A DNA stretch of 64,000 bases from Bacteroidetes bacterium UBA6161 (GTDB lineage: Bacteria; Bacteroidota; Bacteroidia; NS11-12g; UBA955): NCBI GenBank assembly GCA_002422315.1, contig DIUJ01000049.1:83799-147798 (forward strand). Direction: 5' to 3'. Every line of letters starts with the position of its first letter. Position 1 is the first letter of the stretch. The notes beneath the pieces are model-generated. The model did not search any database and was not told where the DNA came from. It saw nothing but the letters and a program-made list of their open reading frames with translations. Of this stretch, positions 30 through 45,483 are shown in pieces. A program made the translations under genes and the position numbers.

Positions 30-779
30 ATGAAAACAAATAAAATTTTACTCCTAATATTTTTTCTGCTAACAAGCAGTGTATATGCACAGTCTAGGTA
101 TAGAATGATAGACCTGTCCTGCAGAATTCACAAGCCTGTAGATGGTTTGTACATTATTTCCCCAACCACTTTAGAAATTTCTTATTGGGTTAAAAACCAA
201 GGCCCCGATACAGTCTTTAAAGAAGATTCGTTTAATGTTAATATTAATATTAATGGTTTAAATCTAGATTATAAAAAATTTATTGCCTCACCTAGTGTTC
301 AACTTAATCCAGGTGATTCTTTTTTATTGACTTATTTTCTTCCTATTGATCATGATAAAGATGTAGATTTTGTTCATATTAACGTAAATTTAGGCCTATA
401 CAACAATTCCTCTAATTTTAATTTTTTTCGAGAAAGTCAAACCAACCCACCTACCGGAGGCGACAATGCATGGCGAGTAATCATAACGCACCGTAGTGCT
501 ACGAGCAGCATAGGGGATATAAATAAGTCGGATGTAAAAATATCGCCTAATCCTGTGGTAGATAAGTTGCAAATAGAACAACCTGAGGAAGGATTGCACT
601 CGATAAATCTACGAGACATAAGTGGTCGTGATATAATCCTAGAGTCAAATAATTTGCAGAAAACAAGTAATTCAAAATGGGAATTAACCCTACCGCAAAA
701 CATAGGGAACGGTATGTACACCCTAGAAATAAAAACAGAGCAAGGAAATTATTACAAGAAAATTTTGGTTCAAAAATGA
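30..779 (+). CDS. Secreted CARDB-like protein with T9SS C-terminal sorting domain (paralog 1, 249 aa)
   Basis: N-terminal signal peptide (LLLIFFLLTSSVYAQ). NQGPDT...LNPGDS pattern typical of CARDB-like beta-sandwich. C-terminal ISPNPVVDKLQIE...GMYTLEIKTEQG resembles a Por/T9SS sorting tail. Confidence 0.7.
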   Translation: MKTNKILLLIFFLLTSSVYAQSRYRMIDLSCRIHKPVDGLYIISPTTLEISYWVKNQGPDTVFKEDSFNVNININGLNLDYKKFIASPSVQLNPGDSFLLTYFLPIDHDKDVDFVHINVNLGLYNNSSNFNFFRESQTNPPTGGDNAWRVIITHRSATSSIGDINKSDVKISPNPVVDKLQIEQPEEGLHSINLRDISGRDIILESNNLQKTSNSKWELTLPQNIGNGMYTLEIKTEQGNYYKKILVQK

Positions 780-795
780 TAAGAAGAAAATGAAT

Positions 796-887
796 TACAC
801 TGCTTGTTGGCATACTAAAAAAAGTAAGAAGCTATGAAAACAAATAAACTTATACTCCTAATATTTTTTCTGCTAACAAGCAGTGTA
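796..887 (+). promoter_or_regulatory. 17-bp inverted repeat (796-812 / 871-887; 16 Watson-Crick pairs plus 1 G-U) enclosing the start codon of paralog 2
   Basis: tacactgcttgttggca pairs with tgctaacaagcagtgta. The 58-nt loop contains ATG 834. The right arm is also present in copy 1 (67-83); the copy-1 left arm is cut by the window edge (1-8). Confidence 0.75.
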
Positions 888-1583
888 TATGCACAGTCTA
901 GGTATAGAATGATAGACCTGTCCTGCAGAATTCACAAGCCTGTAGATGGTTTGTACATTATTTCCCCAACCACTTTGGAAATTTCCTATTCGGTTAAAAA
1001 CCAAGGCCCCGATACAGTCTTTATAGAGGATTCGTTTGATATTTCTGTAAATATTGTAGGTCTTGATCATGGTTTGAAAAGATTTATTTTGCCTGGTAAT
1101 ATTCAGTTAAATCCTGGAGATTCTGTTTTGCTAAATTATAAAACACCTGTGAATTTTAAAGATGATGTGGATTTTGTTACAATTACAACGGGTGTATTGT
1201 TGAAAAATTCATCACCAAATTTTAATTTTATTAGAGAAACTTCTTTGAATCCGCAAACAACTAAAGACAATTCGTGGCGAGTAATCATTACACACCGCAG
1301 TGCTACGAGCAGCATAGAGAATATAAATAAGTCGGATGTAAAAATATCGCCTAATCCTGTGGTAGATAAGTTGCAAATAGAACAACCTGAGGAAGGATTG
1401 CACTCGATAAATCTACGAGACATAAGTGGTCGCGAAATAATCCTAGAGTCAAATAATTTTCAGAAAACAAGTAATTCAAAATGGGAACTAACCCTACCGC
1501 AAAACATAGGGAACGGCATGTACACCCTAGAAATAAAAACAGAGCAAGGAAATTATTACAAGAAAATTTTGGTTCAAAAGTGA
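834..1583 (+). CDS. Secreted CARDB-like protein with T9SS C-terminal sorting domain (paralog 2, 249 aa)
   Basis: Same signal peptide and C-terminal ~110 aa as 30..779. The central ~80 aa are strongly diverged. Confidence 0.7.
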   Translation: MKTNKLILLIFFLLTSSVYAQSRYRMIDLSCRIHKPVDGLYIISPTTLEISYSVKNQGPDTVFIEDSFDISVNIVGLDHGLKRFILPGNIQLNPGDSVLLNYKTPVNFKDDVDFVTITTGVLLKNSSPNFNFIRETSLNPQTTKDNSWRVIITHRSATSSIENINKSDVKISPNPVVDKLQIEQPEEGLHSINLRDISGREIILESNNFQKTSNSKWELTLPQNIGNGMYTLEIKTEQGNYYKKILVQK

Positions 1584-1592
1584 TAAAGATAT

Positions 1593-2342
1593 ATGAATAA
1601 AACGATACAAAATTTAATTTTAGCCATCATGTTTTTCAGCTGCATAAATCTTCCTGCACAGGTAAGAAGATTTGATATGGCAATTACCAATATTTTAGAC
1701 ATTAACCCAATGGATACTTTTGAGCAAAACCAGGAATTTCACCCCTTTAGGTTTGTGGTTACTAATATGGGACCCGATACATTTTATGCTTTTGATATTA
1801 TAGGTTTTAGGGTTTGGGTGGGAAGCGGCTCTTTTATTGGTGGTGATAAAATGGTAAGAAGGGATTTGGGGGTGAACGATTCCGACACTTTTTCTACTGT
1901 TTTTGAAACCTATAGTGGATTCTATATTACAGATATAGACTTGTGCGTTACATACGAGTACTACAAGAACAATAGAGGAGATAGTGTTGCAAAACCAACG
2001 CCTGCAATGGAAAAAAACGATAAATTTTGTATCCCTACTGTTTATTATTCCATTTATTCTCCAAGACCAGTGGATACCTTAGTGCTAGAAGATTCTGTTT
2101 TTTCATTTGCTCTTTATCCAAATCCTGCAAGTAATGAGATGTTTGTGGAGTTAGGATACGAAATAGGAGAGGATTTTGAATGTTCAGTTTTTTCTTTAGA
2201 TGGTAGGATTATAAATATACCGCGCTACAAAATAAGGCACAAAGCATATAGTTTAGATTTTTCAGATATTGAATCAGGGATTTATATTTTACAAGTAAAG
2301 GATGAAAAAACAACTAAAAGAGAAAAGATTGTAATTCAATAA
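1593..2342 (+). CDS. Secreted protein with T9SS C-terminal sorting domain (distant paralog 3, also 249 aa)
   Basis: Signal peptide. TNMGPDT motif equivalent to NQGPDT. C-terminal LYPNPASNEMFVEL...GIYILQVKDE sorting-domain pattern. Confidence 0.65.
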   Translation: MNKTIQNLILAIMFFSCINLPAQVRRFDMAITNILDINPMDTFEQNQEFHPFRFVVTNMGPDTFYAFDIIGFRVWVGSGSFIGGDKMVRRDLGVNDSDTFSTVFETYSGFYITDIDLCVTYEYYKNNRGDSVAKPTPAMEKNDKFCIPTVYYSIYSPRPVDTLVLEDSVFSFALYPNPASNEMFVELGYEIGEDFECSVFSLDGRIINIPRYKIRHKAYSLDFSDIESGIYILQVKDEKTTKREKIVIQ

Positions 2343-43563: not shown

Positions 43564-43910
43564 GGGGTATGTAAGGGTGGGGGGTTACAGGAAAAAATAC
43601 TTATACTTCAAAAATAATAAAAACAAGGAATAGTCAAAAGGTTATCAGAAAGTTTTCTTGCTTAAGTTTAATTCTGATTTTTTATCCTTCATTAAGTCAT
43701 TAAAAATATAAAGTGACGTTTGTTTAAGTTGTTAATTATTTATCAGATATAAGTATTGTTGTTTTTAAAAATATATTTATTTGGTAATGAATATGTTGAT
43801 TATTATTTGTAATTAAAAAAACACTTATTGTGTGTATTAGGTTGATTATGATCTAATTATGTTTGTTTTATTCAGATATTGATCTCATTTTTGCAATAAA
43901 TTGAGCGTAC

Positions 43911-44390
43911 ATGAATGTAAATTTTGAAAGAGCAAAAAACACAACTGTGGAATGGTTAACACCTCCTGAACTAGTAAAAAGTTTAGGAGATTTTGATTTA
44001 GATCCATGTACTCCAATAAATCCGCCTTTTATTCATGCAAAAGTCAACTACAATAAAAATGATAACGGATTAAACAAAGATTGGTTTGGTAGAGTATTTT
44101 TGAATCCACCTTATGGAAAAGGAATGGAAATTTGGCTTGAAAAACTCAAAAAGCATGGTAATGGTATAGCTTTAATATTTGCAAGAACGGAAACAAAATG
44201 TTTTTTTGCACATATTTGGGATGATGCAGATGCAGTTCTATTTGTAAAAGGTAGAATAAAATTTTATAATTTAAAAGGAGAGCAGGCTGGAAGTCCTGGT
44301 GCCCCAAGTATTTTTATTGCTTACGGTATTAATAACGCTAAATCTCTTGAAGAATCAAAAATAGAAGGGAAATTTATTTGGTTAAAATAA
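43911..44390 (+). CDS. Small phage-type DNA N6-adenine methyltransferase (PF05869 Dam-like family)
   Basis: EWLTPPELVKSLG.FDLDPCT, then the catalytic NPPYG (VFLNPPYGKG) and a late GRIKF. 159 aa. Confidence 0.7.
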   Translation: MNVNFERAKNTTVEWLTPPELVKSLGDFDLDPCTPINPPFIHAKVNYNKNDNGLNKDWFGRVFLNPPYGKGMEIWLEKLKKHGNGIALIFARTETKCFFAHIWDDADAVLFVKGRIKFYNLKGEQAGSPGAPSIFIAYGINNAKSLEESKIEGKFIWLK

Positions 44391-44585
44391 TTGAATTACT
44401 TCAAACTCTGCAACATTAAATTGAGCATCAATTATCCAATTATTTTCTTTTAATAACTTTACAATAGCATCATTTTCATCTATTGCATTATCAACAATAC
44501 CAAGTACTTGTAAATTATTCACTTCTACTTCGGTATTAGGAGCAATTGTTGTTCCTTCCGGAGTTAATACTATATATTTTTTCAT
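44382..44585 (-). CDS. Small acidic protein translationally coupled to the DpnI-like gene (positional analogue of dpnD)
   Basis: ATG 44585 is 1 nt after the upstream TAA (44587-44589). 67 aa. Its 3' end overlaps the convergent methyltransferase gene by 9 nt. Confidence 0.45.
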   Translation of the reverse strand: MKKYIVLTPEGTTIAPNTEVEVNNLQVLGIVDNAIDENDAIVKLLKENNWIIDAQFNVAEFEVIQLF

Positions 44586-44586
44586 G

Positions 44587-45351
44587 TTATGTTTTCTTAT
44601 AATTTCCACGACCAACAAATTCTATGATTCCTTTGTCTCTCAAAACTTGAAGTTGTTGTCTAATTTTGTCTTTAATGAAATTGTTATTGGGATACTTCAA
44701 TTTTAATTTATTCTCAAATTGGTAAACCTCATCTAAAGTGAAATATTGTTTTTTAATTGAATCAACGCAAAGCATTACATCTAAAATCCAACCTCTTGAA
44801 TTGCTTGATTTTTCTCTTAAAAATAATGTTTGGTTGAATGAATTTTCAACAGCTTTTTTATCTATAATCTTAGCGTCTTTCACAAGAAACACTTTGCCTG
44901 CTTCTGCAACATTTGAAATATCAATATTACACCCTATCCACCCTGCACGTTTTGCAGTTGAAGAAAGTGGCTTTCGTTTCACTATGATATCAGGCGTAAA
45001 GAACTGTTTTGGAATAATTAAGAAATTTTCAACTGTCCAATTCTTAGAATATGTTAGAAAGAAAAAGTTTGGGTTCTGATTTGAGCTTATTCGTTCAATC
45101 ATTGTAGAATAAGCACCGTCAGTAATTGTATTTGTGAGTTGCCCTCCCTTACTTTTTAGTTCAAATTCTTCTGAGCACTTATTGCAAAAAAAATCAGCTA
45201 CTGGTCTATTGTTTTCAAATTCATTTAATGGAACCTCTCCACAACAAGGACAATACGAATTGTTAAGAACCCAATTTTCAGTTAAAACTCTTGCAATTTG
45301 AGAGTTACTTTTGTAACCATCCACAAGTTTAGTATTGAAACACAAATTCAT
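44587..45351 (-). CDS. DpnI-like (Dam-replacing family) N6-methyladenine-dependent type IIM restriction endonuclease
   Basis: 254 aa. CPCCG...FFCNKCSEEFELKSK (Cys4 plus ExK nuclease core), RKPLSSTAKRAGWIGCNI, and a C-terminal winged-helix tail KIRQQLQVLRDKGIIEFVGRGNYKK. This is colinear with my recollection of R.DpnI. Confidence 0.8.
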   Translation of the reverse strand: MNLCFNTKLVDGYKSNSQIARVLTENWVLNNSYCPCCGEVPLNEFENNRPVADFFCNKCSEEFELKSKGGQLTNTITDGAYSTMIERISSNQNPNFFFLTYSKNWTVENFLIIPKQFFTPDIIVKRKPLSSTAKRAGWIGCNIDISNVAEAGKVFLVKDAKIIDKKAVENSFNQTLFLREKSSNSRGWILDVMLCVDSIKKQYFTLDEVYQFENKLKLKYPNNNFIKDKIRQQLQVLRDKGIIEFVGRGNYKKT

Positions 45352-45387: not shown

Positions 45388-45483
45388 TTAAAAACAGTGA
45401 TAGTGAAATGAAATATTACAATGGTATTTATGTCCTTTCTCACCTGCCCATTTCAAAAACGGTTTTGCTATTTTTTCTGCCAT
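45388..45483 (-). pseudogene. 31-codon fossil of the 5' end of a dam-type (D12 class) adenine methyltransferase gene
   Basis: Translates MAEKIAKPFLKWAGEKGHKYHCNISFHYHCF*. KPFLKWAG(G>E)K is the conserved N-terminal motif of the Dam/DpnM family. The ORF stops after 31 codons, 36 nt upstream of the DpnI-like start. Confidence 0.55.

Follow-up and report, generated by a model that had tools for sequence, protein, structure and literature searches.

Gene content of the locus

The locus lies in a window of 64,000 nucleotides (the whole stretch that was analysed) from Bacteroidetes bacterium UBA6161 (contig DIUJ01000049.1). A small DNA adenine methylase gene faces, tail to tail, a short gene for an acidic protein, which in turn begins 1 nt after the stop of a DpnI-type nuclease gene on the same strand (Table 1). 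The remnant of a canonical dam gene lies directly upstream of the nuclease. The original prediction had described a 159-aa methylase ORF carrying (E)WLTPPELV, DLDPCT and NPPYG that overlaps by 9 nt a small ORF coupled to a DpnI-like gene, with two GATC sites 31 bp apart upstream, the second abutting a near-consensus -7 box. This observation was confirmed, except that the GATC sites lie 2 nt lower than had been stated. For the small ORF, ATG 44585 was the best start.

Table 1. Features of the methylase-nuclease locus, in window coordinates.
Feature	Position	Strand	Length	Details
Inverted repeat	43821..43835	.		ACAC-TTATT-GTGT(GT), upstream of the methylase promoter; possible operator or left edge of the cassette
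Methylase core promoter	43842..43893	+		TTGA 43842-45; GATC-1 43850-53; -33-like TTG 43863-65; GATC-2 43881-84; -7-like box tCATTTTTG 43885-93
Small Dam-family (PF05869) N6-adenine methyltransferase	43911..44390	+	159 aa	EWLTPPELV, DLDPCT, NPPYG
Acidic AF_1447-family protein (PF27350)	44382..44585	-	67 aa	overlaps the methylase 3' end by 9 nt (44382-44390)
DpnI-type (type IIM) Gm6ATC-dependent restriction endonuclease	44587..45351	-	254 aa	PF06044, PF17726
Remnant of a canonical Dam (PF02086-type) gene	45388..45483	-	31 codons	MAEKIAKPFLKWAGEK...

We searched the methylase against Pfam and it matched PF05869 (Dam) over residues 14-126 with E 3.7e-11 and 43.4 bits, against a gathering cut-off of 28.1. 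PADLOC classed it as an orphan MTase (E 6e-15). However, the match to the equivalog model for phage N-6-adenine-methyltransferase (TIGR01712) was only 34.8 bits, below the cut-off of 97.05. The PF05869 model scored T1 Dam at 236 bits, but the protein is only 25% identical to T1 Dam and is 159 aa long against 237 aa, which is too distant to transfer GATC specificity. T1 Dam, VT2 Dam and M.Btr190III are reported to methylate GATC (PMC4996451, PMC6602927), in agreement with the original prediction that characterized members of this small phage Dam family act at GATC. VT2/933W Dam and HP1 Dam belong to PF05869, although membership was tested here only for T1 Dam; M.Btr190III is related. The T1 Dam family shares the NPPY catalytic motif and an N-terminal W-x-TP motif. 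A possible kinship with non-specific adenine methylases such as Hia5 was rejected, because Hia5 is 281 aa and related to EcoDam/DpnM. The AlphaFold model of the methylase was poor (pLDDT 55), and no fold search was run on it.

The nuclease matched PF06044 (DpnI, E 2.5e-81) and PF17726 (DpnI_C, E 3.4e-35), that is, the PD-(D/E)XK catalytic domain plus the C-terminal winged-helix domain, and PADLOC mREase_II (E 1e-120). It aligned with DpnI (PDB 4esj) over the full length at E 1e-105 and 60.5% identity without gaps. We compared the specificity residues. The results showed that catalytic D53, E64 and K66, the methyl-pocket and base-reading residues N48, R126, L129, R135, W138 and G140, together with D78 and four Zn cysteines, were all identical (residue roles from PMC4117772). 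Cleavage itself was not assayed and restriction to methylated GATC is inferred, but the Flavobacterium homologue FcyTI cuts Gm6A^TC (PMC11037411). With such a methyl-requiring pocket in the partner nuclease, methylation would sensitize DNA rather than protect it, contrary to a classical type II restriction-modification system.

Conservation of the cassette and exchange of its nuclease

We collected 3931 homologues of the methylase, of which the top 120 were 72-84% identical and almost all 159 aa long. The methylase was encoded in at least 145 species genomes of Bacteroidota, and 80 loci were examined. Cultured carriers of the cassette include Flavobacterium filum DSM 17961, F. daejeonense DSM 17708, Pedobacter glucosidilyticus DSM 23534 and Runella aurantiaca. 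In 77 of these 80 loci it was adjacent and convergent to the same acidic small protein. The small ORF, and not the nuclease, is the constant partner of the methylase. The gene upstream of the small ORF was interchangeable: DpnI in about 47 loci, a PLD-DpnI_C fusion in about 17 and a winged-helix/PD-ExK-like protein in about 10. The motifs NPPYG, EWLTPP, DLDPC and GRIKF were invariant in 18 diverse members at 72-84% identity. All three genes were under purifying selection, with dN/dS of 0.13 for the methylase, 0.16 for the small ORF and 0.14 for DpnI. A DUF1801 neighbour was excluded from the cassette because it was found only in the same species, and no relative above 60% identity was found in the plasmid database PLSDB. 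We found no prior description of this cassette.

The cassette sits on a truncated canonical dam gene. The N-terminal AKPFLKWAGGKTQL remnant seen in the window, or longer Dam fragments, lay upstream of the nuclease in many related loci, forming a decay series. In one related locus (L062), which carries an intact Dam+DpnII system and supplied the full-length reference Dam, the adjacent small methylase has lost its start codon and its second promoter GATC. The methylase appears to be kept only alongside methyl-dependent nucleases. Cassettes of DpnI+DpnD, in contrast, lacked both the small methylase and AF_1447 yet also replace dam, so the methylase is not needed for take-over of the locus.

These data bear on the possibility that the methylase is a relic of a former phage or GATC restriction-modification system with no functional relation to the nuclease. 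The closest phage homologues (about 50% identity) are in Bacteroides and Phocaeicola phages, and DpnI+DpnD loci sometimes retain a decaying second methylase from the displaced DpnII-type system. However, the gene is intact in 77 loci from many genera, keeps fixed synteny with the small ORF across four nuclease types, has a cassette-specific conserved promoter absent from the phage gene, and decays precisely where the methyl-dependent nuclease is gone. We consider a leftover or hitch-hiker very unlikely.

GATC sites and the methylase promoter

The window holds only 34 GATC in 64 kb, against 104-199 expected, so two sites within 35 bp are far above background. The same pair was present in the methylase promoter of 69 of 80 loci, with a spacing of 31 bp in 38 loci and 32 bp in 25 loci. 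The anchored consensus was aAAaatTGATCtaATaTTTG, with a near-invariant TTG 18 nt upstream of GATC-2. Assignment to -33/-7 elements rests on the Bacteroidetes promoter consensus (TTG / TAnnTTTG) and was not tested. About 11 loci had a GATC-free promoter variant. The CACACTTATTGTGTG motif of the upstream inverted repeat recurred in most related loci, including those with the GATC-free variant; its function was not examined. No terminator was found between the convergent genes. However, about 11 loci carried an IS200/RAYT gene inserted between them, and thus neither the GATC pair nor the overlap is obligatory.

GATC was avoided inside the cassette genes. Of 50 DpnI genes 48 had none, and Asp31-Pro32 was coded GAC-CCN in 60 of 82 loci although the host DNA is about one-third G+C. 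Host DNA was also depleted, with a median observed/expected ratio of 0.35 at cassette loci against 0.82 in 53 unmatched control loci (p = 3e-14). We rejected this depletion as evidence that the methylase is active, because DpnI+DpnD loci without the methylase were equally depleted; depletion is a property of lineages with this GATC locus. Phage B40-8 was examined as a proxy for specificity. GATC was not avoided there while CTAG, GGCC and CGCG were, which is compatible with GATC protection, but the phage has a second methylase and the result is not decisive.

The original prediction held that the methylase and nuclease are either mutually exclusive or differ in specificity. In a compatible-specificity model, which we regard as possible but less likely than exclusion, the methylase is expressed normally but never produces fully methylated GATC on host duplex DNA. 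It may modify a non-GATC motif, or act only on single-stranded DNA, like pneumococcal DpnA, or only on hemimethylated GATC as a maintenance enzyme. In the last case it would convert partly methylated invader DNA into a good nuclease substrate while leaving the unmethylated host untouched, and since DpnI-type enzymes cut hemimethylated sites only partially (FcyTI), such a sensitizing enzyme would add value. The protein is very small with no obvious target-recognition domain and is distant from GATC-specific T1 Dam, and strong purifying selection in established hosts fits a constitutive role. An ssDNA methylase exists in the pneumococcal GATC system (PMC3573125), and one DpnI+DpnD locus (L175) keeps an intact DpnA-like methylase. 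However, a non-GATC enzyme gives no reason for two conserved GATC sites in its own core promoter within GATC-purged DNA, nor for exclusive linkage to Gm6ATC-reading nucleases. We found no evidence of ssDNA or hemimethyl preference for any PF05869 member.

Reversible phase variation was also considered, in which the cassette would flip heritably between a methylating and a restricting state within a clone and so reproduce inside one population the pneumococcal DpnI/DpnII polymorphism. Two promoter GATC sites three helical turns apart resemble Dam-dependent epigenetic switches such as pap, agn43 and opvAB, and the convergent, terminator-free arrangement fits a toggle. However, turning the methylase on while nuclease protein is present should be lethal, so that reversibility is hard to achieve. 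The methylating state has no restriction activity, so that the benefit is one-sided, no methylation-sensitive DNA-binding regulator is evident, and the small protein is acidic. Bistable expression was not measured. We consider this reading very unlikely.

The acidic small protein

The 67-aa protein carries a precomputed PF27350 (AF_1447) assignment, although our own search of a Pfam copy returned no hit. Its AlphaFold model was confident (pLDDT 90), but no significant fold match was found in PDB or BFVD, and no sequence match in PDB. The protein is strongly acidic (pI 4.2, net charge -7), which is unlike a DNA binder and like known inhibitors or DNA mimics, while the methylase is basic (pI 8.65). 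We searched for AF_1447 fused to a methylase or nuclease, and this gave only C-terminal tails or uninformative extensions. The protein is not DpnD (PF14207): there was no Pfam hit to PF14207 and hhalign found no profile similarity between the N-terminal domains (probability 0.2). However, long-form AF_1447 proteins share their C-terminal tail with DpnD-type proteins (43% identity over 49 aa).

These properties suggested a conditional suicide or addiction module, in which methylase plus nuclease form a two-part toxin and the acidic protein is a labile inhibitor of the methylase or nuclease. When host expression is shut off by phage, or the cassette is displaced, the inhibitor would decay, GATC would become methylated, and the nuclease would destroy host and phage DNA. 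The small protein co-occurs strictly with the methylase and persists with it after nuclease loss in Cloacibacterium rupense, the frequent cassette replacement at the locus would reward an addiction function, and Cas9 or Cas12a genes are adjacent in two loci. However, PADLOC returned no toxin-antitoxin or abortive-infection hit, there is no evidence of interaction or instability, neither of which was assayed, and the shared tail suggests a generic partner of DpnI-type nucleases rather than of the methylase. The model does not by itself explain the promoter GATC pair, and we hold it to be unlikely as the main account.

Comparison with characterized systems

In the pneumococcal DpnI cassette (dpnC-dpnD), the alternative to the DpnII cassette (dpnM-dpnA-dpnB), a DpnI endonuclease is likewise followed by a small acidic partner and occupies the locus of a Dam-type GATC restriction-modification system. 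Cassette exchange runs in both directions, as L062 shows. The partner here is PF27350 instead of DpnD, and this cassette carries its own convergent PF05869 methylase, whereas the pneumococcal DpnI cassette has none. In the neisserial dam-replacing gene (drg/NmeBII) a GmeATC-specific DpnI-family nuclease is inserted in dam and leaves a truncated dam (PMC4269198), as here, but no small methylase or AF_1447-type partner is mentioned in the passages of that paper that we consulted.

Among the winged-helix fusion m6A-dependent type IV endonucleases (Helbrecht et al., 2024), FcyTI is a DpnI homologue and the PLD-wH fusions Aba4572I and CbaI, like the PLD class of nucleases here, were described as Dam-dependent toxins. 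That study treats these enzymes as stand-alone and explains adjacent adenine methylases in Bacteroidota as frameshifted, which matches the dam remnants found here, but does not mention the conserved module of small methylase plus small protein. Compared with the small phage Dam methylases, the present gene is chromosomal and linked to a nuclease that attacks the family's usual product. Promoter-methylation control in restriction-modification systems (CfrBI) and the Dam-dependent switches also place target sites of the relevant methylation inside a core promoter, and in Pgl a methylase marks DNA that is then attacked. Here no regulator was identified, the organism, promoter type and direction of effect are unknown, and this is a resemblance only.

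Discussion

The original interpretation was partly supported. The family assignment, the Gm6ATC-type nuclease and the unusual architecture were borne out, and the options it named of silencing, transcriptional interference or an addiction/abortive module remain live, with the promoter GATC pair and the lack of a terminator favouring regulated exclusion. It had not recognized a mobile, dam-replacing three-gene cassette with interchangeable nucleases, nor the small ORF as the constant partner. The data do not settle whether the pair is a switch, a suicide module or an establishment device.

Our best reading, with a probability of about 0.4, is that the ORF is the intact, selectively maintained small Dam-family m6A methyltransferase of a mobile cassette that has inserted into, and destroyed, a canonical dam gene, and that it is a GATC-acting enzyme held in methylation-sensing mutual exclusion with the nuclease. 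The sequence comparisons themselves establish the conservation of the cassette across species, the swapping of the nuclease module, the truncation of dam, the purifying selection on all three genes, the retention of every DpnI specificity residue, the two promoter GATC sites kept although GATC is purged elsewhere, and the convergent arrangement without a terminator. We infer from these that the methylase acts at GATC, which was not assayed, that its expression depends on the methylation state of its own two promoter sites, and that it is further opposed by head-on transcription from the nuclease operon and possibly by the acidic protein, so that writer and reader-nuclease of the Gm6ATC mark would normally be mutually exclusive. 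The family precedent and the dam remnants, which mark this as a dedicated GATC locus, support the reading. No transcription or methylome data exist, so the sign of any methylation effect on the promoter is unknown.

The leading purpose would be to let the cassette survive the switch between a methylated genome and a methyl-restricting one when it takes over a Dam+/DpnII-type locus. However, strong purifying selection in 77 loci is easier to explain by a continuing role than by a role only at transfer. The same wiring could instead fire as conditional self-destruction (abortive infection or addiction) when control is lost. A more speculative reading, unlikely but compatible with the data, is that a restriction cassette carries the writer of the very mark that its nuclease destroys and holds it on a methylation-sensing leash, whereby a methyl-dependent nuclease gains either the ability to attack unmethylated invaders or kill the infected cell ("mark then cut"), or an addiction function that type IV enzymes otherwise lack. 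This would be a new logic for restriction systems, widespread in Bacteroidota, with interchangeable nuclease modules and a new family of small acidic control proteins.

Methyl-dependent (type IIM/IV) nucleases are thought to work alone, because a methylase of matching specificity would be suicidal. Here such a pairing is conserved, selected and mobile. If the methylase does act at GATC, the cassette shows how cells control a self-targeting writer/eraser pair, and it may also explain how cassettes take over resident GATC restriction-modification loci, or how a type IV enzyme acquires abortive-infection or addiction behaviour. It would offer compact parts, a 159-aa methylase and a GATC-sensing promoter, for epigenetic circuit design in Bacteroidota, and would give a first functional handle on two uncharacterized small-protein families, PF27350 and, by analogy, DpnD.

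Identity of the three genes

We first examined the region in which a small phage-type adenine methylase had been predicted to overlap, tail to tail, a small ORF coupled to a DpnI-like gene. The observation held as described, with the 159-aa ORF carrying EWLTPPELV, DLDPCT and NPPYG, and with its last 9 nt overlapping the small ORF, for which the best start gives 67 aa and lies 1 nt after the stop of the 254-aa gene. The two upstream GATC sites are 2 nt lower than originally placed, but are still 31 bp apart, and the second abuts tcatttttg. The coordinates of all features are collected in the table.

Coordinates of the features in the window and in related loci (L numbers denote related loci compared with the window)
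Sequence	Position	Strand	Feature
Window	30..779, 834..1583, 1593..2342	+	Three consecutive ORFs of exactly 249 aa that look like tandem paralogues
Window	43821-43835		Inverted repeat ACACTTATTGTGTGT upstream of the methylase promoter
Window	43850-43853		First promoter GATC
Window	43881-43884		Second promoter GATC
Window	43911..44390	+	Small methylase, 159 aa
Window	ATG 44585	-	Start of the small protein, 67 aa
Window	44587..45351		DpnI-type nuclease, 254 aa
Window	45388-45483		31-codon dam remnant, MAEKIAKPFLKWAGEK...
L022	7446-7531		Flavo-1 RNA motif (also in L009, L012, L018, L024, L025, L028, L033, L037, L068, L072 and L170)
L030; L062	6481-7102; 6566-7072		IS200/RAYT-like gene (also in L036, L049, L054, L063, L064, L076, L078 and L079)
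L009; L016; L034	5939-6733; 6740-7450; 6693-7436		Alternative nucleases in the DpnI position: one PLD-nuclease plus DpnI_C fusion (264 aa) and two related 236-247-aa proteins
L175	2201-6345		DpnI+DpnD locus with an apparently intact DpnA-like methylase
L005; L006	1-5571; 54-5487		Cassette directly next to CRISPR-Cas loci

The methylase matched the Pfam family PF05869 (Dam) above the curated cut-off (43.4 against 28.1 bits) and also matched a PADLOC orphan-methylase model. However, it fell below the TIGR01712 equivalog cut-off, and it is only 25% identical to T1 Dam, which scores 236 bits on the same Pfam model. A search of the PDB showed no sequence relative of the methylase.

The nuclease is 60.5% identical, without a gap, to S. 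pneumoniae DpnI. A lack of methyl-GATC specificity in this protein had been put forward at the outset as grounds for rejecting the interpretation of the pair, and on this point the comparison with DpnI showed that the catalytic residues D53, E64 and K66, the guanine- and methyl-reading residues N48, D78, R126, L129, R135, W138 and G140, and the four zinc cysteines are all kept (residue roles from PMC4117772). A Flavobacterium homologue, FcyTI, has been shown to cut Gm6A^TC (PMC11037411).

The small protein carries the precomputed tag PF27350 (AF_1447). Its structural model was confident (pLDDT 90) with a predicted beta-beta-alpha-alpha-beta topology, but showed no significant structural neighbour. 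The protein is strongly acidic, with a pI of 4.2 and a net charge of -7.

Conservation of the cassette

The methylase has 3931 detectable homologues, of which the best 120 are 72-84% identical and nearly all are 159 aa. A scan of one genome per species found 145 species encoding it, almost all Bacteroidota, including Flavobacterium, Pedobacter, Runella, Arcicella, Chitinophagales and Cloacibacterium among others. In 77 of the 80 loci fetched, the small ORF lies convergent and adjacent to the methylase.

In contrast, the gene preceding the small ORF varies. It is a full DpnI in about 47 loci, a 262-264-aa fusion of a PLD nuclease domain with the DpnI_C winged helix (PF13091 plus PF17726) in about 17 loci, and in about 10 loci a 236-247-aa protein with an N-terminal winged-helix-like region and a C-terminal PD-ExK-like region. 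The annotation of this last group is weak (PADLOC REase_II, E 2e-8), and the two related proteins of 236-247 aa that were examined carry the PD-ExK-like motif (DVIWFNER...FFEVEHSTD) and match no Pfam or NCBIfam family.

Flanking genes differ between taxa. In two loci (L005 and L006) the cassette lies in a defence-island context, next to Cas9-Cas1-Cas2 in Cloacibacterium rupense and next to Cas12a-Cas4-Cas1 in a metagenome contig. In C. rupense the nuclease is missing while the methylase and the small ORF are intact. About 11 loci from different species carry a 153-aa IS200/RAYT-like Y1 transposase gene (PF01797; 72-86% nucleotide identity) inserted at the same place, between the methylase and the small ORF, so that the overlap of the convergent genes is not universal. 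This insertion is possibly linked to cassette mobility or to the Flavo-1 repeats described below.

All three cassette genes are under purifying selection, with dN/dS of 0.13, 0.16 and 0.14 for the methylase, the small ORF and DpnI, respectively, and the methylase motifs are invariant. The possibility that the methylase is merely a relic is disfavoured by this conservation and by its decay where the methyl-dependent nuclease is absent.

Replacement of dam by the cassette

Directly upstream of the nuclease, on the same strand, many loci carry part of a canonical Dam (PF02086/TIGR00571) gene. The fragments form a decay series, from genes lacking only the C-terminal KRGKLTELLITNY strand, through a copy with stop codons, to N-terminal remnants of 14-120 residues. 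In many related loci an ~85-nt Flavo-1 RNA motif (RF01705, 55 bits, E 2e-11) lies at the junction between the truncated dam gene and the nuclease gene, and the dam ORF reads through into it. This motif behaves like a repeat element at a recombination junction, but it is not present in the window.

One locus, L062, showed the opposite state, with an intact Dam, a PF04556 DpnII endonuclease and a DpnA-like methylase. Beside them is a decayed small methylase whose start codon is lost and whose second promoter GATC has mutated to AATC. This matches what is known for the neisserial dam-replacing gene (PMC4269198) and the pneumococcal DpnI/DpnII cassettes (PMC3573125).

We also sampled other Bacteroidota DpnI genes and found a second cassette type, DpnI plus a DpnD-family protein (PF14207), which also sits on truncated dam but has neither AF_1447 nor the small methylase. 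AF_1447 and the small methylase therefore travel together. One such DpnI+DpnD locus, L175, contains an HTH (C-protein-like) gene, a 169-aa truncated Dam, a RhuM-family gene and, downstream, an apparently intact DpnA-like PF01555 methylase, which is another possible coexistence of a methylase with a methyl-dependent nuclease. About a third of PF27350-family representatives (for example the proteins P0361 and P0367) are 105-125 aa, with a C-terminal extension (YLW-DE-KHYEES...) homologous to the tail of long DpnD-family proteins (43% identity over 49 residues). However, the N-terminal domains of the two families showed no profile similarity. Two unrelated N-domains share one tail.

GATC depletion and the methylase promoter

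GATC is the most depleted 4-bp palindrome in the window, with 34 sites observed against 104-199 expected (104 under the Markov expectation). It was depleted in all cassette-bearing loci, with a median observed/expected ratio of 0.35 against 0.82 in 53 control loci, although these controls are not phylogenetically matched. Across the window and loci L001-L088 and L170-L173, depletion was seen in all genomes carrying either type of DpnI cassette, but not in most control Bacteroidota-like loci. DpnI+DpnD loci were equally depleted. We therefore attribute the depletion to the history of GATC-directed restriction in these lineages, not to the small methylase.

Within the cassette, GATC is avoided even more strictly. 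Of 50 DpnI genes, 48 have none, and Asp31-Pro32 of the methylase is coded GAC-CCN in 60 of 82 cases, although these genomes are about one-third G+C. Against this background, 69 of 80 loci keep two GATC sites 31 or 32 bp apart in the methylase promoter. One lies in the spacer abutting the -7-like box, with a near-invariant TTG 18 nt upstream of it, and the other lies about 12 nt upstream of that TTG. However, the GATC pair is not universal, as about 11 loci have a GATC-free promoter variant. The inverted repeat upstream of the promoter is conserved at sequence level, loop included, across most loci, including those whose promoter lacks GATC, and may be an operator or the cassette boundary. The homologous gene of Bacteroides phage B40-8 has no such GATC pair.

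No intrinsic terminator was found between the convergent genes. A reversible phase switch was considered for the cassette but is unlikely, because switching the methylase on in the presence of the nuclease should kill the cell.

Interpretation of the cassette

The data establish that an intact, selected methylase is a constant partner of Gm6ATC-dependent nucleases in a dam-replacing cassette, and that its promoter retains GATC sites that are purged elsewhere. Beyond this, we infer that the methylase acts at GATC, and that its expression is coupled to the methylation state of its own promoter and opposed by head-on transcription, so that methylase and nuclease activities would normally be mutually exclusive. 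The specificity of the methylase, transcription and any protein interactions are untested, and this reading is tentative. As an alternative, the methylase may have a specificity compatible with the nuclease, either for a non-GATC motif or with activity on ssDNA or hemimethylated sites only. The original prediction had offered mutual exclusion or a different methylase specificity, and this interpretation was supported in part.

Two purposes fit the inferred circuit. In the first, safe take-over, the cassette would tolerate the change from a methylated to a restricting genome when it displaces a Dam+/DpnII system. Its location on truncated dam, the GATC-free coding DNA and the reverse replacement seen in L062 support this, but DpnI+DpnD cassettes manage without a methylase. 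In the second, conditional self-destruction or addiction, the acidic protein would act as an inhibitor. Its acidity, its strict linkage with the methylase and continued purifying selection support this. However, there are no interaction data, and the tail shared with DpnD suggests a nuclease partner instead.

Dam-replacing DpnI cassettes and winged-helix fusion nucleases are already known. Our literature searches found no description of the conserved module of small methylase, PF27350 protein and GATC-bearing promoter. The closest paper treats these nucleases as stand-alone and explains adjacent adenine methylases in Bacteroidota as frameshifted, which corresponds to the dam remnants found here. 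There is a real chance, although it is the less likely outcome, that the cassette embodies a new 'mark then cut' or addiction logic.
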